A stretch of DNA of 64,000 nucleotides from an uncultured Gemmatimonadaceae bacterium (lineage in GTDB: Bacteria > Gemmatimonadota > Gemmatimonadetes > Gemmatimonadales > Gemmatimonadaceae): positions 504,696 through 568,695 of the forward strand of contig CAWHHI010000012.1 of the NCBI GenBank assembly GCA_963829055.1, written 5' to 3'. Under the pieces are notes generated by a model. It saw only the letters and a list, made by a program, of their open reading frames with translations. It did not search any database and was not told where the DNA came from. The translations under genes were made by a program, and so were the position numbers. This document shows, in pieces, positions 22,328-34,309 of this stretch (positions are counted from its first letter, which is position 1; each line of letters begins with the position of its first letter).

Positions 22328-22753
22328 GTGATGCGTCGGTGCTGGACCGTTGTCGTGCTGGTAGCGCTTGCCGCTTGCGATAGCGGGCGATTGGGCGCGC
22401 CGCTCGGGACCATGGGCGGCACCGCGGGCACGGGCGGGACTTCGATTGCGGCCGGCCTCGTAGGCACCTGGCGACGCATTCTCTACTTCCTCGCCGAGGA
22501 CGGCTCCGCGAGCTCGAGCGAGACCACGTGGCGCTTCAACGCGAACGGCACCGCCAGCCGGCTCTCGGTCACTCGCAACTACACCGCCGGCCTCGCGGAC
22601 GCGCAGACCGTCGACGCGCGATGGGAAGCGCTCACACAGTCGATTCGCATCACCTACCTCCCGCCGAGCTCGGGAACCTTCGAGTTCTCCTATCGCATCA
22701 ACCAGGACACGCTGTACTTGGCCTCCCAAGGGTACGTGCGGGTCGCGCCGTGA
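22328..22753 (+). CDS. Hypothetical lipoprotein
   Basis: Lipobox LAAC; LVGTW beta-rich domain. Confidence 0.7.
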   Translation: MMRRCWTVVVLVALAACDSGRLGAPLGTMGGTAGTGGTSIAAGLVGTWRRILYFLAEDGSASSSETTWRFNANGTASRLSVTRNYTAGLADAQTVDARWEALTQSIRITYLPPSSGTFEFSYRINQDTLYLASQGYVRVAP

Positions 22754-24048
22754 GCCCCGTGAGTGCAGTGCGTAGTCGCCGCGCGCAGGTCGTGATCGTC
22801 GGCGGGGGGCCGGCCGGCGCCGCCAGCGCGTATTTTCTGGCGCGCGCCGGCGTCGACGTGATGATCCTGGATCGCGCGCGGTTTCCGCGCGATAAGCCGT
22901 GCTCGGAGTACATGAGCCCGCAGGCATCGCGCATCCTCAACGACATGGGGCTGCTCTCGCGCGTCGAGAGCGCGGGGGCCGCGCATCTCGCGGGCATGCG
23001 TGTTCGCGCTCCCGACGGCACGACCTTCCACGGTCGCTTCGCCGACGTCGACGGCTATCGCGGCTTTCGCGATCGCGGGCTCGCGCTTCGTCGCACGGTT
23101 CTCGACACCCTTCTCCTCGCACGCGCGCGCGAGGCAGGCGCGCACGTCGTCGAGGGGGCGCGCGTCACTTCCCTCGCGCGCGACCAGAGCGGTCGCGTCA
23201 TCGGCGTTGACGTCGTGGACCGCGGTGACTCGCAATCCACCGTGCTGGCCGCGATCGTCATCGGCGCCGACGGACTCCGCTCGATCGTGAGTCGCCGGCT
23301 CGGGCTCGCTGCGACGCGACGCGCGCAGCGCCGCCTCGCGCTCGTCACACACTTCGTAGGCGTCGACGGCATCGGCGATAGCGGTGAGATGCACGTCGAG
23401 CATGATGGCTACGTCGGGTTGGCTGACGTGGGAGGCGGCGTATCGAACGTTGCCGTCGTTGTCCCGACGTCGCGCGCGCGCCGTGCCGCTGGCGACCCGG
23501 CCTCGTTCATGGACGACTGGATCCGCCGCCGACCGCACATCGCGCCGCGCTTCGCCAGAGCCATGCGTGTCTCGCCCGTGCTCGCGACGGGACCGTTCGC
23601 GTCCGCATCCCGGCGCGCGTGGGCACCGGGCGCGGCACTCGTCGGCGACGCGGCCGATTTCTTCGATCCGTTTACCGGCGAAGGGATCTACGCCGCGCTC
23701 CGAGGCGCCGAGCTCCTCGCGCCGCACGTCGCGCGTGCGCTCTCGGCGACGTCCGCCATCGACGCCGACGCGGCTCTCAAAGCGTACGATCGCGAGCGTG
23801 TTCACGAGTTCAGCGGGAAGTGGGCGGTGGAGCGCCTCATCGGCGCCGCGGTTAGCTTCCCTCCCCTCATGAACATCGCCGCCCACTCTCTCGCGCTACG
23901 CCCGGCCATGGCCCACACGATGGTCGGCGTCACCGGAGACTTCGTTCCGGCGCGCGAAGTGCTTCGCCCCGGATATCTGTTGCGGCTGGTCGCGCCGTGG
24001 CTCCTGCGCGCGACCACCGCCACGCCAGCTCTCACCAACACCGATTAG
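22750..24048 (+). CDS. FAD-dependent oxidoreductase (geranylgeranyl reductase/monooxygenase family)
   Basis: VIVGGGPAG; FPRDKPCSE; IGADG; LVGDAADFFDPFTGEGI. Confidence 0.9.
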   Translation: MSPVSAVRSRRAQVVIVGGGPAGAASAYFLARAGVDVMILDRARFPRDKPCSEYMSPQASRILNDMGLLSRVESAGAAHLAGMRVRAPDGTTFHGRFADVDGYRGFRDRGLALRRTVLDTLLLARAREAGAHVVEGARVTSLARDQSGRVIGVDVVDRGDSQSTVLAAIVIGADGLRSIVSRRLGLAATRRAQRRLALVTHFVGVDGIGDSGEMHVEHDGYVGLADVGGGVSNVAVVVPTSRARRAAGDPASFMDDWIRRRPHIAPRFARAMRVSPVLATGPFASASRRAWAPGAALVGDAADFFDPFTGEGIYAALRGAELLAPHVARALSATSAIDADAALKAYDRERVHEFSGKWAVERLIGAAVSFPPLMNIAAHSLALRPAMAHTMVGVTGDFVPAREVLRPGYLLRLVAPWLLRATTATPALTNTD

Positions 24049-24050
24049 TC

Positions 24051-24530
24051 GTGGCGATCGATCCTGACACATTCCGCAGCGTGCTCGGTCGGTTCGCGTC
24101 AGGCATCACCGTCGTCACCACGCGAGATGGCGAAGGCGGACACTGCGGCATGACCGTCAGTGCGTTCTGCTCGGTGAGCCTCGCTCCGCCGCTCGTCCTC
24201 GTCTGCATCGACCTCGCGGCGTCCATGCATAACGCGATACTCGGCGCGTCGCATTTCGCCGTGAACATTCTGTCGGCCGAGCAGGAAGCGATCTCGCGCC
24301 GCTTCTCGAGGCTCGACGAGCACCACCGCTTCGACGGTCTGGGATACGCGCCGGGCGTATCGGGAGCGGCGTTGCTCGACGACGCGCTCGCGCATATCGA
24401 GTGTCGGCGCGTCGCGCAGCATCGCGCTGGCGATCACACCATCGTCATCGGCGAAGTGGAGGCGGCGACCGCTCACGCCGAGCAGCCCCTCCTGTACTAT
24501 CGCGGCGGCTACGCTCAGATCGATCGCTGA
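24051..24530 (+). CDS. Flavin reductase-like protein
   Basis: FRSVLGRFASGITVVT; SVSLAPPLVL; GDHTIVIGEV; PLLYYRGGY. Confidence 0.92.
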   Translation: MAIDPDTFRSVLGRFASGITVVTTRDGEGGHCGMTVSAFCSVSLAPPLVLVCIDLAASMHNAILGASHFAVNILSAEQEAISRRFSRLDEHHRFDGLGYAPGVSGAALLDDALAHIECRRVAQHRAGDHTIVIGEVEAATAHAEQPLLYYRGGYAQIDR

Positions 24531-24536
24531 ACCAGC

Positions 24537-25247
24537 GTGACCACACTCATCACGCCGCCGCGCCGGCGCAGCTTCGAGTACCTCGACGCACCGAACGTCG
24601 ATCCCAAGCTCGTTCGCCGATCGCTGGCGGACGTCGCGCTCGCGAATGCGCTGTTCGGCGGCACGCGCGCCGTGCTCCTCGAAATCGAAGACCTGCTGCC
24701 CGAATTGAACGGCAGTGCGACGCTGCTCGACGTCGGCAGTGGCGTCGGCGACATCGCGGCTCGCGCCCGCGCGCTCGCGCGTACTCGTGACATCGACCTC
24801 TCGCTCATCACGATCGACATGGCGGAGACGCTCGCCCTCGCCAGTCGCGCGCGCGCCGGCAACGCGGTGCGCGGAGACGCGACCGCGCTTCCGTTCGCCG
24901 ACAAGTCCGTGGACATCGTGATGTGCTCGCAGACGCTGCATCACTTCGACGATGCGAGCGCAGCGAGCGTCCTCCGGGAGCTCGACCGCGTTGCGCGCGT
25001 GCGTGTCATCATCGCCGACCTGCGGCGAAGCTGGCTCGCTGCGGCAGGACTCTGGCTCGCGTCCTTCCCGCTCGGCTTTCATCCCGTGAGCCGGCATGAC
25101 GGCATCGTCTCCATCATGCGCGGCTACACGAACGATGAGCTGCGCCGCCTCGTGACGTCGTCCATCGGACGAACGCCGGTCGTTAGGCGCCGCATCGGCT
25201 GGCGCGTGACGGCGACGTGGCGGCCCGGAACGGCCGTCGCAACGTGA
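24537..25247 (+). CDS. SAM-dependent methyltransferase
   Basis: LLDVGSGVGD; SQTLHHF; DLRRS; HDGIVSIMRGY. Confidence 0.88.
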   Translation: MTTLITPPRRRSFEYLDAPNVDPKLVRRSLADVALANALFGGTRAVLLEIEDLLPELNGSATLLDVGSGVGDIAARARALARTRDIDLSLITIDMAETLALASRARAGNAVRGDATALPFADKSVDIVMCSQTLHHFDDASAASVLRELDRVARVRVIIADLRRSWLAAAGLWLASFPLGFHPVSRHDGIVSIMRGYTNDELRRLVTSSIGRTPVVRRRIGWRVTATWRPGTAVAT

Positions 25248-25258
25248 GTCGGCCATCG

Positions 25259-25789
25259 ATGCGGCCACCCTACCAGCTCGGCCCCATGCCGACCGGCCGC
25301 CGAATGGAAACAATCGACCGGCAGCTCGTACGGGCCGATGTGCGCGCGATGTTCGACGTCGCCCGGCGGGTCGAGGAATGGCCGGCGCACCTGTCGCACT
25401 ACCGGTACGTGCGCGTCCGCGAAGCGGCGACCGACGGTGGCGGACTCGTCGAGATGTCGGCCGACCGGCCCTTCGGGCCGCTCGCCTGGCCCACGTGGTG
25501 GTTGTCGGAGATGGAAGTCGATCACGCCACGCCGGCGATCCGATTCCGCCATATCGAGGGTATTACCAGTGGCATGGAAGTCGAATGGAGCTTCACGCCG
25601 GCGGACGGCGGGACGCTCGTTCGCATCTTGCACGTGTGGGATGGGCCGGCCTGGCCACTGATCGGGAATTTTTCAGCCACGACAGTGATCGGGCCTGTAT
25701 TCATTCACGGAATCGCGTCGCGCACGCTCGCCGGCCTGGCTCGCGTTGCGGAGCGTCAGGGTAGTCCCACTCGTCCCCCTCGACGCTGA
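25259..25789 (+). CDS. SRPBCC/polyketide cyclase-family protein
   Basis: VEEWPAHLSHY; WWLSEM; IRFRHIEGITSGMEVEWSF. Confidence 0.8.
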   Translation: MRPPYQLGPMPTGRRMETIDRQLVRADVRAMFDVARRVEEWPAHLSHYRYVRVREAATDGGGLVEMSADRPFGPLAWPTWWLSEMEVDHATPAIRFRHIEGITSGMEVEWSFTPADGGTLVRILHVWDGPAWPLIGNFSATTVIGPVFIHGIASRTLAGLARVAERQGSPTRPPRR

Positions 25790-25816
25790 ACGCCCACTGT
25801 TCGGTCTCTCTCAGCT

Positions 25817-27058
25817 ATGCGTCGTCGTCGAGTCGTCGTCACGGGAATAGGCGCCATCACCCCAATCGGCATCACCGCTCCGACCATGTGGGACGGCGTG
25901 CGCGCCGAGCGCTCGGCGGTGCGATCTCTGACCCGCTTCGATCCGTCGATCTTTCGAAGCCACAACGCCGCCGAAGTCGATGACTTCGTCGCGACGGACC
26001 ATCTGGAAGCGAAGCGCGCCAAGCGCCTCGATCGGTTCGGGCAGTTCTCGGTCGTCGCCGCGCGGCAGGCGCTGGAGGACGCGCACCTGGATCTGGCCGT
26101 CGAAGATCGCGATCGCATCGGCTCGATGATGGGCACGGCGCTCGGTGGCGTGGGCTACGCGGAGGAACAGCTCGCGCTCTTTCTCACGCAGGGACTTCGC
26201 GGCGTAGAGCCGAATCTCGCGCTCACCGTGTTCGGCGGCGCTTCGAGCTGCAACATCGCGATCGAGTTCGGCGTTCGTGGTCCCAACTCGACGAACGCGA
26301 TGAGCTGCGCGTCAGGCACCATCGCGATCGGCGAAGGGTTTCGTCAGATCCGCGATGGCTATGCAGACGTGATGATCAGCGGCGGCGCCGAAGCACCGCT
26401 CGCGCCGCTGTGTTTCGGCGCGTTCGCGCTCATCAGAGCAATGTCGACGCGCAACGATGATCCGACGTCCGCGTCGCGGCCGTTCGACCGCGATCGCGAT
26501 GGGTTCGTGATGGGCGAAGGGTCAGCCGTGTTGATCCTCGAGGAGCGGACGCGCGCGATCGCGCGCGGCGCACCGATCTACGCCGAGATACTCGGCTATG
26601 GCACCACGAACGACGCGCATCACATGACGGCCCCGCTCCCCGACGGGTCGCAGGCGGCTCGCTCCATCTCGCTCGCGCTCACCGACGCCGACATTGCGCC
26701 CACTGACGTTGCCTACGTGAACGCGCACGGCAGCTCGACACCGCTCAACGACGCGACCGAAACCCTCGCCATCAAGCGTGTGTTCGGCGAGCACGCGTAT
26801 CGGATGCCAGTGAGCAGCACGAAGGGCTACTACGGCCACGCGCTCGGCGCGTCGGGCGCGATCGAGGCCGCGATCTGCTCGCTCGCCCTGCGCAACCGCT
26901 GGATCCCGCCCACCGTGAATCTCCAGACGCCGGACGCCGCGTGTGATCTCGACTACGTGCCGGCTACGGGTCGTGCCGCCGACCTGGACGTCATTTTGAG
27001 CAACTCGTTCGGCTTCGGCGGGATCAACGCCGCACTCGTGATGCGCAGCGACAACTAG
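25817..27058 (+). CDS. Beta-ketoacyl synthase (FabF/KS-alpha-like)
   Basis: RRVVVTGIG; SCASG (Cys); HGSST and GHALGA (His-His); SNSFGFGG. Confidence 0.9.
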   Translation: MRRRRVVVTGIGAITPIGITAPTMWDGVRAERSAVRSLTRFDPSIFRSHNAAEVDDFVATDHLEAKRAKRLDRFGQFSVVAARQALEDAHLDLAVEDRDRIGSMMGTALGGVGYAEEQLALFLTQGLRGVEPNLALTVFGGASSCNIAIEFGVRGPNSTNAMSCASGTIAIGEGFRQIRDGYADVMISGGAEAPLAPLCFGAFALIRAMSTRNDDPTSASRPFDRDRDGFVMGEGSAVLILEERTRAIARGAPIYAEILGYGTTNDAHHMTAPLPDGSQAARSISLALTDADIAPTDVAYVNAHGSSTPLNDATETLAIKRVFGEHAYRMPVSSTKGYYGHALGASGAIEAAICSLALRNRWIPPTVNLQTPDAACDLDYVPATGRAADLDVILSNSFGFGGINAALVMRSDN

Positions 27059-29004: not shown

Positions 29005-29157
29005 TCACCGCGCAACCCCCGAGTGCCCACCATTTTCACGACGACGCTCGCGGTCGCGCGCACGCCGGGTGCGGATCACGAGCGAGACGATGTAGCCGCC
29101 GTAGATGACCGCTGCCGCGATGTACGCGGCGTGGTAGTAGACCGCATTGTCGGGCAT
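29005..29157 (-). CDS. ccmD: CcmD-like heme exporter small subunit (not in ORF track)
   Basis: MPDNAVYYHAAYIAAAVIYGGYIVSLVIRTRRARDRERRR...: one TM plus basic tail; TGATG-coupled to ccmC. Confidence 0.7.
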   Translation of the reverse strand: MPDNAVYYHAAYIAAAVIYGGYIVSLVIRTRRARDRERRRENGGHSGVAR

Positions 29158-29891
29158 CAGCGCACCGACTCGGCGCGAAGCGACGCAACCGGAGACTCCG
29201 CCATGTCCTCGTCCTCGAGTGCGTCCAGCGTTTCAGCAAGTCGGTAGCGGGCGCGGACCAGTGCCACGAACAACAGTAACAACGATACCAGCGACATGAG
29301 GAACGTCGTCAGCATGTTCCCCGGCAACGAAGGCGTACCCGGTTTGAGAATGATCGGCATCGGGTGCAGCGTGCGAAACAGATAGACGCTCAGGTGAATG
29401 AACGGCACCAGCAACGCACCGAGAACGCCCAGCACCGCCGAGTAGCGCGCGCGCACCGCCGGATCCTCGATAGCGCCTCGAAGAATGAGATACCCGACGA
29501 ACACGAACCAGATGAACAGCGTCAGCGTCAGACGCGCATCCCACGTCCACCATGTTCCCCAGATCGGCTTCCCCCACATCGGGCCGGTGACGAGCACGAC
29601 GGTCATGAACACTACCCCGACTTCAGCGGCCGACGCGGCGATGCGATCGAGGCGTTCGTCGCGAAGCCACAGGTACAGACCTCCCGCGACAGCGACGATG
29701 CCGAATGCGACGTACAACCCGATGAACGCGGACGGTACGTGTACGTAGAAGATCTTCTGCGCCGCGCCCTGCTTCGCCTCCGGGGGCGTGAAGTAGATCG
29801 CACGCACGAACGTGGCAATGAGCGCGAGGATGGCGACGGGGAGCAACCAGTCAGAGCCGCGGCGCTCTCTTGCCGGCGGTGATCCAGTCAT
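29157..29891 (-). CDS. ccmC: Cytochrome c biogenesis protein CcmC
   Basis: IFYVHVP; WGKPIWGTWWTWDARLT (WWD motif); TLHP. Confidence 0.95.
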   Translation of the reverse strand: MTGSPPARERRGSDWLLPVAILALIATFVRAIYFTPPEAKQGAAQKIFYVHVPSAFIGLYVAFGIVAVAGGLYLWLRDERLDRIAASAAEVGVVFMTVVLVTGPMWGKPIWGTWWTWDARLTLTLFIWFVFVGYLILRGAIEDPAVRARYSAVLGVLGALLVPFIHLSVYLFRTLHPMPIILKPGTPSLPGNMLTTFLMSLVSLLLLFVALVRARYRLAETLDALEDEDMAESPVASLRAESVR

Positions 29892-29911: not shown

Positions 29912-30607
29912 TCAGTCTTCGAGCGTGAACGGAAACGCGAGCGCGCACGCGACGACGAACACGATGTCGAACGCGATCAGGATTCTCAACCAACTCATCG
30001 CTTCCGACACTGGTCGCCCTGCGAGCAAACGCGCGGTCGATTGCGCGGCGGGGAGAACAACCGGAACGAAGAACGGCAACGCGAGCACGGGCAACAATAG
30101 CTCCGACAGTCGAGTGTTCGCGGTCATCGCGCTGAACAGCGTCCCTATGCTGACGAGGCCAATGGCCGCGAGCACCGCGATCGCGATGAGCGGTCCGAGG
30201 ACGCGCGTCAGCGGAAGGTTGTAGAACAGCGCGACAGCGGGAATCGCCAGCGCCTGTACACCGAGCACGAACACGAGGTTCGCGAACGCCTTGCCGAGGA
30301 ACACGGCTTCGCGCTCGATCGGTGATGCGAGAAGCGCGTCGATCGCCCGATCAGCCTCTTCGACACCGAACGATCGGTGTAGACCCAACAGGCCTGAGAA
30401 CGTGAAGATGACCCACAGAACACCAGGCGCGAGATCGATCGCGCTCACCGCCGTCGCATCCCACGCGAAATAGAAAATCACGATCGCGAGGAGAGCAAAC
30501 ACGAGTGCGGCGAGGAACGCGCTACGCGTGCGGAACTCGATCGCGAGATCTTTTCGCGCGATGAGCGCGGCGGCCGCGAACGTGCCCGGGGGAATGCGAG
30601 CGCTCAT
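29912..30607 (-). CDS. ccmB: Heme exporter permease CcmB
   Basis: KDLAIEFR; APGVLWV; ELLLPVLALP. Confidence 0.92.
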   Translation of the reverse strand: MSARIPPGTFAAAALIARKDLAIEFRTRSAFLAALVFALLAIVIFYFAWDATAVSAIDLAPGVLWVIFTFSGLLGLHRSFGVEEADRAIDALLASPIEREAVFLGKAFANLVFVLGVQALAIPAVALFYNLPLTRVLGPLIAIAVLAAIGLVSIGTLFSAMTANTRLSELLLPVLALPFFVPVVLPAAQSTARLLAGRPVSEAMSWLRILIAFDIVFVVACALAFPFTLED

Positions 30608-31308
30608 CGCGTCACTGCCTCGCGATATGCCTCGCGATACGTCTCGAGCTCCACATCGCCGCGCGGTTCGTGGGTGAGGAATCGGCCGTCGCGCATGATC
30701 GCGGTGTGAGACGCGAGCGCGAGTCCTTCGCCGAGGTGATGTGTCACCAGCACGAGCGAAGCCCCACTGGCCTTGAGCGATCGAAGCGCGTCGCTCAGTG
30801 CCGACGCGCCGCCTTCGTCGAGGCCCGTGTACGGCTCATCGAGCAGCACCACCCGAGGATCGTGCACGATGGCTCGCGCGATCGACACTCGTTGCTGCAT
30901 TCCTCGGCTGAGCGAGCGGACCGGCGAGTCGGCCCGATCCTGCAGCCGCATGCGCTGGAGCGCACGAAGCGCCGCGTCGCGCGGTGCGAGGACGCCATAC
31001 ATGCGCGCCGTGAACTCGACGTTCTCGAGCGCGGTGAGCGCCGAGTACAACATGCTCTGATGCGAGATCAACCCCACGACGGATCGCGCGGCGGCGCCCC
31101 CGGGTAACGCGACGCCATCGATGCGTGCGTTTCCGCTCGTGGGACGCAGGAGGCCAGCGAGGACGCGTAGCAGCGTGGTCTTGCCGGCACCGTTAGGCCC
31201 GAAGAGCGCCAGGCATTCGCCTCGATGCACAGCAAACGTCAGCGCTCGCACCGCGACGCGACGTCCGAAGCTTCTGGTGAGCCCGCTGGCCTCGATCGTC
31301 GGAGGCAT
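30604..31308 (-). CDS. ccmA: Heme exporter ATPase CcmA
   Basis: GPNGAGKTT; LSRGMQQR; LLDEPYTGLD; adjacent to ccmB. Confidence 0.9.
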   Translation of the reverse strand: MPPTIEASGLTRSFGRRVAVRALTFAVHRGECLALFGPNGAGKTTLLRVLAGLLRPTSGNARIDGVALPGGAAARSVVGLISHQSMLYSALTALENVEFTARMYGVLAPRDAALRALQRMRLQDRADSPVRSLSRGMQQRVSIARAIVHDPRVVLLDEPYTGLDEGGASALSDALRSLKASGASLVLVTHHLGEGLALASHTAIMRDGRFLTHEPRGDVELETYREAYREAVTR

Positions 31309-31516
31309 ATTCCCCGACGTACGAGCCTGCGCTAGCGAGGCCGTGTGTGAGGGTTCGGTCGGCGTGGCGGCGTGAGGCACGACCGAACGTTAGCCGCAGG
31401 AGGTAGGCGGTGGGTAGGATACGAAACGGCGACCGCGTTGCCGCGGCCGCCGTACGTGAGGGATCGAGGTGCGTGCACATCGAAGGGGGCCACGACATGC
31501 ACGCCTCTCGAACCAC

Positions 31517-31828
31517 TCAGTCGATCAACTCGAAGAGAAAATCGAGCATTGTGAGTTTGAGCAAATTGCGGACCCGCTCGGGTGCACGACGCAAGGAAGT
31601 CGACAACCCACGCTCCTTCGCGCGTTTCTGGAGCAGTACGAGGATGCCCAGCCCGCTCGCATCGAGCTCCACCGTCTGCCCCATGTCGATGGCGAGTGCC
31701 CCGTCCGCAGGCTGCAGGCGCTCGAGGTGCGCCAATGCTGCCGTGCGAAAATCGGCCCGTGTGGACGCGACGAGCCTTTCAGGGGCGACCAATACGTTCC
31801 CCGTTGTGTTGTCAATTGCGGCGCACAT
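31517..31828 (-). CDS. STAS-domain anti-sigma factor antagonist
   Basis: IDMGQTVELDASGLGILV; RVRNLLKLTMLDFLF. Confidence 0.85.
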   Translation of the reverse strand: MCAAIDNTTGNVLVAPERLVASTRADFRTAALAHLERLQPADGALAIDMGQTVELDASGLGILVLLQKRAKERGLSTSLRRAPERVRNLLKLTMLDFLFELID

Positions 31829-31904
31829 AAACAGAACCCTCCGATCGGCGACGAGCACACACCGCGGACCAGGAGGAGTCAGATGCCGAGCTTCCCGGCG
31901 GACA

Positions 31905-31993
31905 CCTTCGGCAGCCGGACGATCTCACCACGTTGTGTGGGGCGAGACTCCTGGCTTTGCGGCCCCGCCTCGCGGCGGGTGTGCTCTTGTCGA
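31905..31993 (-). ncRNA. GEMM-I (c-di-GMP-I class) riboswitch with A at position 20 (cGAMP-type)
   Basis: UCGACAAGAGCACACCCGCC-GCGA-GGCGGGGCCGCAAAGCC-AGGAGUCUC...GAGAUCGUCCGGCUGCCGA: P2 with GNRA loop, GCAAAGC junction, P3, GCCGA end; in the leader of the STAS gene. Confidence 0.85.
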
Positions 31994-32028
31994 GTGACGC
32001 TTGCCCTTCGATTTGCCATCGGTCAGAA

Positions 32029-32043
32029 GCGACTACCATGCCA
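32029..32043 (-). promoter_or_regulatory. Putative sigma-54 -24/-12 promoter upstream of the riboswitch
   Basis: TGGCATGGTAGTCGC (GG-N10-GC). Confidence 0.4.
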
Positions 32044-32308: not shown

Positions 32309-34309
32309 ATGTCCGAAGACATTGACGTCCTTCTTCATGAGCATCGCAAGTTCGAGCCGCCCGAAGCGTTCCGGCGCGACGCGCACGTATCGTCAACGGA
32401 GCTGTATCGCGAGGCTGAGCGTGACCCGGAACGCTTCTGGGCTCACATGGCGGGCGCCCTCGAGTGGTCGCGACCATGGGACACGGTGCTCGAATGGACG
32501 CCGCCTCACGCGAAGTGGTTCGTGGGCGGAAAGCTCAATGCGTCCGTCAACTGTCTCGATCGTCACATTCGGACCGCGCGCCGCAACAAGGCTGCGCTGA
32601 TCTTCGAGGGCGAGCCCGGCGATCGGCGCACGCTCACGTACTGGGACCTCTACGTCGAGGTCAACAAGTTCGCGAACGTGCTCAAACGACTTGGCGTTAG
32701 GCGCGGGGATCGCGTCGGCATCTACATGCCGCTCATCCCCGAAGTCGTGATCGCGATGCTCGCCTGTGCGCGCATCGGCGCCATCCACTCCGTGGTGTTC
32801 GGCGGCTTCTCCTCCGAGTCGCTGCGCGACCGCATGAACGACGCGAAGGCGAAGGTCGTCATCACGGCGGACGGCGGCTATCGGCGCGGGCAGATCGTCC
32901 CGCTCAAGCGCAACACCGATAAGGCGCTCGAAGGAGCACCGACCGTGGAGCACGTGATCGTCGTCATGCGCCGCCCGGGCGCGGGAGGCGACGAGGCGTT
33001 CGCCCACATGCAGGAAGGGCGCGATCACTGGTGGCACCGACTCATGGCCGACGCACCAGCGTTCTGCGAGCCCGAAGCGATGGACGCCGAGGACGTGCTG
33101 TACATCCTCTACACGTCCGGCACGACGGGCAAGCCGAAGGGCATCGTCCACACCACTGGCGGCTACCTCACCGGCGTCACAGCGACGGCGAAGCTCGTTT
33201 TCGACCTCCGCGACGACGACGTGTTCTGGTGTACCGCCGACGTAGGCTGGGTGACCGGTCACTCGTATGTCGTGTACGGCCCGCTCGCCAATGGCGCGAC
33301 GTGCGTGATGTACGAAGGCGCGCCCGATTGGCCGGACAAGGACCGATTCTGGGAGATCTGCGCGCGCCACGGCGTGACCATCCTGTATACCGCACCGACC
33401 GCCATTCGCGCATTCATGAAGTGGGGCAACCAGTACCCCGCCCGCCATGATCTCAGCCGGCTGCGCTTGTTAGGCAGCGTCGGGGAGCCGATCAATCCCG
33501 AAGCCTGGATGTGGTATCACGAGCACATAGGCGGACGACGTTGCCCCATCGTGGACACGTGGTGGCAGACGGAGACCGGAGCCATTGCCATCTCCCCGCT
33601 TCCGGGTGTCACCGCCACGAAGCCCGGCAGCGCGACGACCGCGCTGCCCGGATTCTCCGCCGAGCTGCTCGACGCGCAAGCGAATCCGATTCCGGTGGGC
33701 GGCGGACTGCTCGCCATCACACGGCCGTGGCCGTCGATGCTGCGCACCATCTGGGAAGACGACGCCCGGTATGTGCAGACCTACTTCTCGAAATGGCCCG
33801 GGCGCCCAGACCTCTACTTCCCAGGCGACGGCGCCAAGCGCGACGCGGATGGCTACTTCTGGATCCTCGGCCGCGTGGACGACGTGTTGAACGTCGCCGG
33901 GCATCGCATCGGAACGATGGAGGTGGAGTCGGCGCTGGTCGAGCATCCTGCGGTCGCCGAAGCCGCCGTGGTCGGAAAGACGCACGCGATCAAGGGCCAG
34001 GCGATCGCCGCGTTCGTCACGTTGCGCGAAGGCCAGAACCCGACGTCCGAGCTGCGTGACGAGCTCCGGCAGTTCGTCGCCGACAAGATCGGCGCGCTCG
34101 CGCGGCCAGATGATATTCTTTTTTCCGCCGATCTGCCGAAGACACGCTCCGGGAAGATCATGCGTCGCCTGCTTCGCGACATTGCGGAAAATCGCATGCT
34201 CGGCGACACGACCACGCTCGCCGATCCGAATGTCGTCGCAAACCTCGCGGGGGAATGGCAGTCGGGGCAGTCGCCTATCGCGCGCGAGGGGATCGAAGAG
34301 GAGGAATGA
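32309..34309 (+). CDS. acs: Acetyl-CoA synthetase
   Basis: [32 protein letters not shown]. Confidence 0.97.

Follow-up and report, generated by a model that had tools for sequence, protein, structure and literature searches.

A conserved GEMM-I riboswitch with adenine at position 20 precedes a STAS-domain gene in Gemmatimonadota

The window analysed here is the whole 64-kb stretch of DNA from an uncultured Gemmatimonadaceae bacterium. It contains a riboswitch aptamer, a gene for a small STAS-domain protein and a run of ccm genes on the minus strand, with an acetyl-CoA synthetase gene (acs) as the divergent upstream neighbour:

32309-34309, plus strand: acetyl-CoA synthetase (PF00501, PF16177)
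32029-32043, minus strand: predicted sigma-54-type promoter box (GG-N10-GC), a box conserved upstream of STAS-switch loci
31906-31994, minus strand: GEMM-I aptamer of the c-di-GMP-I clan, assigned from Rfam models and covariation
31517-31828, minus strand: stand-alone STAS-domain protein of 103 aa (PF13466 and PF01740 above cut-off)
31387-31392, minus strand: predicted -10 hexamer at 6 nt from the start codon of ccmA, identical in sequence and spacing in 7/7 genus members
30604-31380, minus strand: ccmA-like ABC ATPase (PF00005), named ccmA by its position before ccmB and ccmC
29912-30607, minus strand: ccmB (PF03379)
29157-29891, minus strand: ccmC (PF01578; start codon inferred)

An earlier note on this DNA had placed the STAS gene directly before ccmABCD on the same strand. 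This order was confirmed for ccmA, ccmB and ccmC, but ccmD stands less firmly: a small hydrophobic ORF (29157-29005, minus strand) that overlaps the ccmC stop codon is ccmD-like by position, and the 39-residue part searched matched no NCBIfam model. Among homologous loci, acetyl-CoA synthetase adjoins 22 of 25 orthologous STAS loci, and of the 58 STAS loci for which 1 kb or more of downstream sequence was available, 51 have a detected ccmA there. In the sister family, the STAS gene and ccmA are usually separated by a response-regulator gene, and one genome (G012) has the switch and the STAS gene with no ccmA in the fetched locus. Loci of a third family (L038, L039 and L040) lack the switch, have a cold-shock gene with sub-threshold matches to the cspA model between acs and the STAS gene, and gave no sigma-54 box in the search. 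Elsewhere in the window (22528-27058, plus strand), ORFs resemble, from their translations, an FAD-dependent oxidoreductase, a flavin reductase, a methyltransferase, a cyclase-like protein and a ketosynthase.

The aptamer is the only gathering-level Rfam match in the window (31906-31994, minus strand; RF03167, clan CL00126, 62.2 bits, E 2.7e-12). The top-scoring label, the c-di-GMP-I-GGC variant, was rejected because RF03167 has G20 and G47, whereas the aptamer has A at both positions. A covariance-model search with RF01051, one of the checks proposed in the earlier note, gave a match above cut-off (59.5 bits against 35; locus L002). Together with the covariation described below, this bears out the GEMM-I aptamer that the note had read on the minus strand. 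Its reading of adenine at the equivalent of Vc2 G20 was likewise correct, since the six-base J1/2 is ungapped in the Rfam alignment and thus places position 20 at nt 31985. Position 47 is A (31958), position 92 is C (31911) and the C44-G83 tertiary pair is formed by 31961 and 31920. The pocket therefore carries A20, A47 and C92, the sequence signature of GEMM-Ib, and not the G20 of the c-di-GMP-selective pocket, given the A at 31985.

Consistent with these assignments, the 33 distinct homologues picked from 56 extracted sequences have 99% of cells paired and nine pairs with changes on both sides, a number reached by 0 of 500 shuffles; slid controls pair at 26-43%, and related sequences inflate this statistic. 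A20, A47 and C92 are invariant in all 33 aligned homologues, which had been selected for A20, and so are the pocket bases and the C44-G83 pair. By itself, the aptamer is more stable than shuffled sequences (z -2.45). C24 (31981) and C43 (31962) depart from both Rfam models, which have A at these sites. Given that C24 with a pyrimidine at position 43 also occurs in 37 G20 copies from 29 genomes, this combination is a lineage feature of P2, and we rejected it as the mark of a new ligand class. The element is a genuine, conserved GEMM-I riboswitch with adenine at position 20.

The genome encodes seven GEMM-I copies. Six have G20 and mostly precede proteins with signal-peptide-like N-termini, and the STAS copy has A20. 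When STAS orthologues were collected by protein alone (25 loci), the switch was present in 13, always with A20 (13/13). Searched with a pattern for the A20 form, 101 of 401 genomes of the phylum gave matches; ten matches were dropped by eye (six chance-like or of another form, four with A24) and 91 kept. The first 30 matches fetched include 26 that precede a STAS gene. In 20 loci from multi-copy genomes, eight copies precede a STAS gene and most others lipoprotein-like genes; to judge from N-terminal sequences, these are of a kind that G20 copies also precede. The form with G20 and C24 gave 37 matches in 29 genomes, and one of the 30 fetched is an orthologous STAS switch (L293, genome G215). 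A pattern scan of metagenomes returned 13 matches, none of them a riboswitch by inspection. A second A20 type of GEMM-I (L120, L128, L131 and L217-L246; 49 of 53 matching genomes kept) has A24, G48 and a different P1, is often multi-copy or tandem, and precedes secreted-looking proteins in the loci inspected.

Between the aptamer and the STAS gene, the leader contains the following elements:

31884-31890, minus strand: segment complementary to the 3' strand of P1 (duplex -9.5 kcal/mol)
31867-31880, minus strand: switching strand, with the 5' strand of P3 (-12.2 kcal/mol) and the Shine-Dalgarno arm (-13.5 kcal/mol) as alternative partners
31849-31860, minus strand: anti-aptamer strand, able to pair with the aptamer 5' arm including A20 (-16.6 kcal/mol)
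31837-31842, minus strand: Shine-Dalgarno of the STAS gene, read from the sequence, with GGAGG invariant in 7/7 genus members

The aptamer lies 77 nt from the ATG, and mutually exclusive folds are predicted for the leader. The two pairings named in the earlier note both exist (-12.2 and -9.5 kcal/mol); the anti-aptamer strand at 31849-31860 was absent from its scheme. In 2000 structures sampled without ligand, 1888 had the anti-aptamer pairing and no Shine-Dalgarno hairpin, and 106 were in the Shine-Dalgarno-hairpin fold. Forcing P1 and P2 of the aptamer closed a hairpin over the Shine-Dalgarno in the folding prediction and made the ribosome site costlier to open, at 10.7 instead of 5.7 kcal/mol. 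Of the 35 homologues entered into this comparison (39 loci tried), 24 shifted towards a less open site by over 1 kcal/mol and three in the opposite direction; two homologues are predicted to be more open when bound. The UCCUC core of the switching strand is invariant in 7/7 genus members, and in a sister-family genus (g24) the Shine-Dalgarno immediately 3' of P1 fits the same OFF logic.

Comparison with shuffled sequences gave a mixed picture. The anti-aptamer duplex was as strong in 4 of 300 shuffles here and in 45-64 of 300 in six congeners, and the duplex against the Shine-Dalgarno in 1-8 of 300 in three genus members and 51-73 of 300 in four. In most congeners, the individual platform pairings stand out poorly from shuffles, and the leader as a whole is no more stable than shuffled sequences (z -0.6). 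A scan for sigma-70 promoters and terminators found no promoter and five weak terminators, against 2.5 expected. The expression platform proposed earlier is thus supported by the mutually exclusive folds, with shuffle support divided, and a translational OFF switch on the STAS gene is a prediction of moderate strength. Without ligand, 31860-31849 would pair with the aptamer 5' arm and 31880-31867 with P3, so that the ribosome site would be more accessible. Once ligand binds, the aptamer would fold, and the freed 31880-31867 strand would pair with the Shine-Dalgarno arm and block initiation.

Upstream of the aptamer, the GG-N10-GC box was recognised by its fit to the sigma-54 consensus, and its spacing predicts a transcription start near 32017. 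Of 46 STAS-switch loci, 44 have such a box in the 120 nt upstream, compared with a genome background of 0.005 per 120 nt, and the genome encodes RpoN and 14 ORFs with a GAFTGA motif. The box was also found in 6 of 12 switch-less STAS orthologues and in 4 of 14 non-STAS switch copies. Its presence in STAS loci with and without the switch suggests that the promoter belongs to the STAS gene and that the switch is a layer added in some lineages.

Downstream, a -10-like hexamer lies 5-7 nt before the start of the gene after STAS in 20 of 56 loci, compared with 1.8 expected from shuffles. This suggests that ccmA has a separate leaderless transcript, with a start predicted at 31380, and that ccmABC is probably transcribed separately from the switch and the STAS gene. 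The closeness of such hexamers to start codons (31392-31380 in the window, and homologous loci) suggests leaderless transcription in Gemmatimonadota. In four soil metatranscriptomes, from runs chosen for words shared with the window, one or two contigs each, which show neither strand nor ends, match either the leader or the STAS gene (0-3 differences); no piece among those listed spans STAS and ccmA, and these matches were not counted as evidence. The switch-STAS-ccm neighbourhood is real, whereas the data do not support control of ccm by the switch. The echo of cytochrome control in Geobacter that the earlier note had seen here is correspondingly weakened: ccmA has its own predicted leaderless promoter, the Ccm genes mature cytochromes and are not cytochromes themselves, and the predicted translational OFF switch differs from transcription turned ON in Geobacter.

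The STAS gene expected downstream of the aptamer was borne out by the matches to PF13466 and PF01740. Translation probably begins at the ATG at 31828, downstream of the Shine-Dalgarno at 31842-31837; a longer reading from a GTG at 31858 was discarded because the ATG has the Shine-Dalgarno and agrees with congeners. In this protein, Ala57 aligns with Ser59 of TM1442, the usual phospho-site. All 12 loci of the window's family have Ala or Gly at this position, and the other 48 loci have Ser. The protein scores 20.9 bits with the anti-anti-sigma model TIGR00377 (cut-off 53.45) and 22.8 bits with the MlaB model NF033618 (cut-off 90); its profile has seven PDB matches, MlaB structures among them, and a search of the ESM Atlas matched Gemmatimonadota STAS clusters only. 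No anti-sigma kinase gene adjoins the STAS gene. A canonical pair of STAS protein and HATPase anti-sigma kinase lies elsewhere in the genome (contig C16), and the genome has candidate anti-sigma kinases on contigs C14 and C16 and 41 matches to sigma-70 region 2.

The alanine at the usual phospho-serine makes classic partner switching doubtful, and this, with the score far below the anti-anti-sigma cut-off, weakens the earlier proposal that the signal feeds into sigma-factor partner switching. Without a phospho-serine, the STAS protein would be controlled by the amount made rather than by phosphorylation. Given the STAS/kinase pair and the 41 sigma-70 matches elsewhere in the genome, a role as an antagonist controlled by its abundance is possible.

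The question then is which signal the aptamer reads. The earlier note had proposed a cGAMP-type signal. An RxxQ HD-GYP protein described below keeps cGAMP plausible, but A20 does not fix the ligand. According to the accessible sections of PMC6140456, A20 is necessary for cGAMP binding and not selective for it: the Kd of Vc2 G20A is 53 nM for c-di-GMP and 120 nM for cGAMP, and that of the natural Cbe 1-2 aptamer 30 nM and 463 nM, respectively. In the available text of PMC7288161, the c-di-AMP-binding GEMM mutant is G20A/C92U, so the retained C92 argues against c-di-AMP. Further sources, likewise accessible in part, were PMC8835794, PMC5888326, PMC5473149 and bioRxiv 10.64898/2026.01.30.702909.

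To identify potential producers of the signal, we inspected the cyclases. Position 348 is Ser or Thr in Hypr enzymes, which also have GGDE(F/Y), and Asp at this position gives a diguanylate cyclase (PMC6456294, available sections). The search for Hypr-type GGDEF proteins suggested in the earlier note was negative in the host genome and in five switch-bearing relatives. The host genome, which is 86% complete and has frameshifted stretches, contains 12 GGDEF matches (Asp at the selectivity site in ten, a degenerate Gln in one, and one fragment), including several canonical c-di-GMP synthases. No recognised cGAMP synthase, be it a Hypr enzyme with Ser/Thr and GGDEF or a CD-NTase, was found in this 86% complete genome. 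Across the host and the five relatives, three of these six genomes being 99-100% complete, no intact domain among 66 GGDEF matches has Ser or Thr at the selectivity site, the lone Ser being in a degenerate domain. A Hypr-signature query of 30 further switch-bearing genomes gave best matches of at most 48% identity, with Asp in 27 and Asn in three (top match per genome). SMODS CD-NTases were not found in any of six genomes, and the lone nucleotidyltransferase match of the host genome was dismissed as unlike a CD-NTase by inspection. The Ser/Thr cyclase pattern was likewise absent from all 14 switch-bearing genomes of the window's family listed from the 401-genome sample. Two host receiver-GGDDF proteins (L016 and L017) have Asp and counterparts in relatives, and L016 lacks the conserved Asn; the second cGAMP synthase of Geobacter shares the GGDDF with them but has Ser in place of Asp.

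Elsewhere in the phylum, the Hypr pattern matched 61 of 401 genomes, of which about 51 were kept (unfetched ones judged from the matched codons), and 27 of 30 fetched loci are GGDEF proteins with Ser. In the sister family, MASE1-like membrane-sensor GGDEF fusions with the full Hypr signature (L164-L192, for example L184:364-1836, plus strand; the fusion was called from loci printed in full) are candidate cGAMP synthases. Among 166 sister-family genomes, the pattern was found in 6 of 76 with the STAS-type switch and 38 of 90 without it, and the second A20 type co-occurs with it in 24 of 38 sister-family genomes; these counts are confounded by kinship, and the exact-motif pattern can miss divergent enzymes. 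We consider the second A20 type a better candidate for sensing cGAMP than the STAS switch.

GGDEF proteins of an Asn variant (L055, L255, L262, L271 and L336-L351) have a cysteine-rich, Fe-S-like N-terminus. The Asn pattern is present in 76 of 90 sister-family genomes tested (46/52 with the switch, 30/38 without), and in the window's family in one of 21, plus one of 22 that resembles a chance match. Because the Asn-variant cyclase occurs throughout the sister family whether or not the switch is present, and hardly at all in the window's family, it was ruled out as the partner of the switch. The host protein related to it is without the GGDEF part. A literature search found no paper joining Gemmatimonadota with Hypr enzymes and none joining STAS genes with the GEMM-I class, although supplements of the founding papers may list such enzymes or sequences.

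In addition to the reader, the genome encodes a putative eraser. An HD-GYP gene on contig C16 (C16:435100-436600, L352) is frameshifted, and its shifted frame reads Tyr-Gln at the selectivity motif (tblastn); the several frameshifts in this region are probably sequencing errors. The RxxQ gene is intact in the congener G004 (94% identical over 112 residues). Its orthologues occur order-wide, and in 18 loci fetched from 22 genomes searched, the 17 that were parsed all have Gln (16) or Asn (1) at this site, compared with Arg, Lys or His in 19/19 parsed paralogues. In alignment, this Gln takes the place of the Lys with which PmGH reads the base, and the RxxQ signature is shared with PmxA. According to the accessible part of bioRxiv 10.1101/600031, five of six Rxx(Q/N) HD-GYP enzymes assayed degrade cGAMP, three of them selectively, and two of the five active ones degrade both signals. 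The RxxQ gene is paired with a HEAT-repeat gene and lies between trpB and trpA in three of four loci (L353-L356 and L368-L380 also carry the pair); no cyclase was found near it among the 35 of 93 candidate ORFs scanned in four loci. We regard the RxxQ HD-GYP protein as a candidate cGAMP phosphodiesterase. As judged by sequence, the window's family would thus have a reader and a candidate eraser of cGAMP, with no recognisable writer.

Taken together, the reading that we prefer, with a probability of about 0.5, is that the A20 GEMM-I switch is likely bispecific, is predicted to be OFF on a sigma-54-promoted STAS gene, and most likely responds to high c-di-GMP. As no known cGAMP-making enzyme was found in the genome, c-di-GMP is the somewhat likelier trigger. 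By analogy with Vc2 G20A, A20 would lower the affinity for c-di-GMP from picomolar to tens of nanomolar, and the STAS switch would therefore trip at higher c-di-GMP than the six G20 copies. A bispecific A20 pocket that serves as a higher-threshold c-di-GMP sensor would also explain the retention of A20. On the other hand, all 13 switches located by way of the STAS protein have A20, which is in keeping with selection for the recognition of adenine and speaks for a true cGAMP switch, in which A20 readers and the RxxQ eraser would be joined by a writer without a known Hypr or CD-NTase signature. Such a system deserves serious consideration, even if we hold it to be somewhat less likely. The uniform Gln or Asn of the HD-GYP orthologues, set against the basic residues of the paralogues, would suit it, as would the alignment of the Gln with the base-reading Lys of PmGH, the Hypr-signature and Asn-variant cyclases elsewhere in the order, and the coexistence of G20 and A20 switches in one genome, as two channels would need. 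Weighing against it are the cyclase patterns of the window's family (Ser/Thr in 0/14 genomes, Asn in 1/21), the lack of a cyclase in the ORFs scanned near the RxxQ gene, the one STAS-switch orthologue with G20 (L293), and the RxxQ proteins themselves, which also occur in genomes where the A20 switch was not found and whose assayed relatives include two that degrade both signals. More tentative still, and rather unlikely in our view, is a Gemmatimonadales-wide 3',3'-cGAMP pathway with a synthase of an unrecognised kind in the window's family. Its parts would be two separate A20 lineages, the conserved RxxQ phosphodiesterase and this new kind of synthase, with MASE1-fused Hypr cyclases as writers in some genera and the Fe-S-fused Asn-variant cyclase in one family.

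Two other explanations concern the target and the ligand. The switch might control the whole STAS-ccmABC(D) operon and thus connect the signal to cytochrome c maturation, with the STAS protein perhaps an MlaB-like subunit of CcmA. This would agree with ccmA downstream of most STAS loci, with a score for MlaB as good as that for anti-anti-sigma proteins (both far below cut-off) and with the MlaB structures among the PDB matches. It is nevertheless improbable: ccmA has its own predicted leaderless promoter, the sister family usually has a response-regulator gene in between, G012 has switch and STAS gene without ccmA in the fetched locus, and a translational switch, barring polarity, controls the first gene. 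Less likely again, and in our view a slim prospect, is an aptamer that senses another ligand, such as a different A-G type or a linear dinucleotide, or that is disabled by C24 and C43. In its favour, these two bases differ from the consensus of both Rfam models, and no known cGAMP synthase was found alongside the switch; but C24 with a pyrimidine at 43 is shared with G20 copies, and the pocket bases and C44-G83 are invariant throughout the homologues.

To our knowledge, housekeeping cGAMP signalling has been characterised in few groups only, for example Geobacter, Myxococcus and Bdellovibrio. While the riboswitch class and the A20 pocket are already known, the phylum and the gene context are new. 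Should the switch respond to cGAMP, the signal is in use in a soil phylum that is abundant but hardly studied, and the window's family needs an unrecognised synthase; if the cGAMP pathway is true, the STAS switch could serve directly as a reporter in the hunt for that synthase. If it reads c-di-GMP, as we prefer, it would be a natural, deeply conserved case of A20 setting a threshold, and a warning against annotating G20A as cGAMP from sequence alone.

To place the locus among known systems, we compared both the protein and the switch with characterised relatives. The STAS protein has the STAS family match and the D-x-x-G-L-G motif in common with TM1442, RsbV, SpoIIAA and MlaB; unlike anti-anti-sigma proteins of the TM1442 type, it has Ala57 in place of Ser59 and no adjacent kinase, and it scores below both NCBIfam cut-offs. 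Vc2 and the STAS switch share the three-way junction, a GNRA-capped P2, A47, C92 and C44-G83. Vc2 is also a translational OFF switch (PMC9262584, accessible part), as predicted here, and its G20A mutant, which has the same pocket as the STAS switch, is bispecific (PMC6140456, accessible sections). In contrast to Vc2, A20 of the STAS switch is natural and conserved, C24 and C43 replace consensus adenines, and the regulated gene encodes a STAS protein under a predicted sigma-54 promoter.

The GEMM-Ib switches of Geobacter (Gs1761, Gm0970 and pilM) have A20, A47 and C92, as does the STAS switch. However, Geobacter has the Hypr synthase GacA, whereas no Hypr enzyme was found in the host genome, and the Geobacter switches activate (ON) the transcription of genes for cytochromes and pili, whereas the STAS switch is predicted to turn translation OFF (PMC6456294, available sections). 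A further difference is that six of the seven GEMM-I copies of the host have G20. Cbe 1-2 of Clostridium beijerinckii resembles the STAS switch as a natural A20 aptamer outside Geobacter, a likeness drawn from A20 and not from sequence comparison, and it prefers c-di-GMP (PMC6140456, accessible sections). Unlike Cbe 1-2, the STAS switch is kept across two families, alongside an RxxQ HD-GYP protein.
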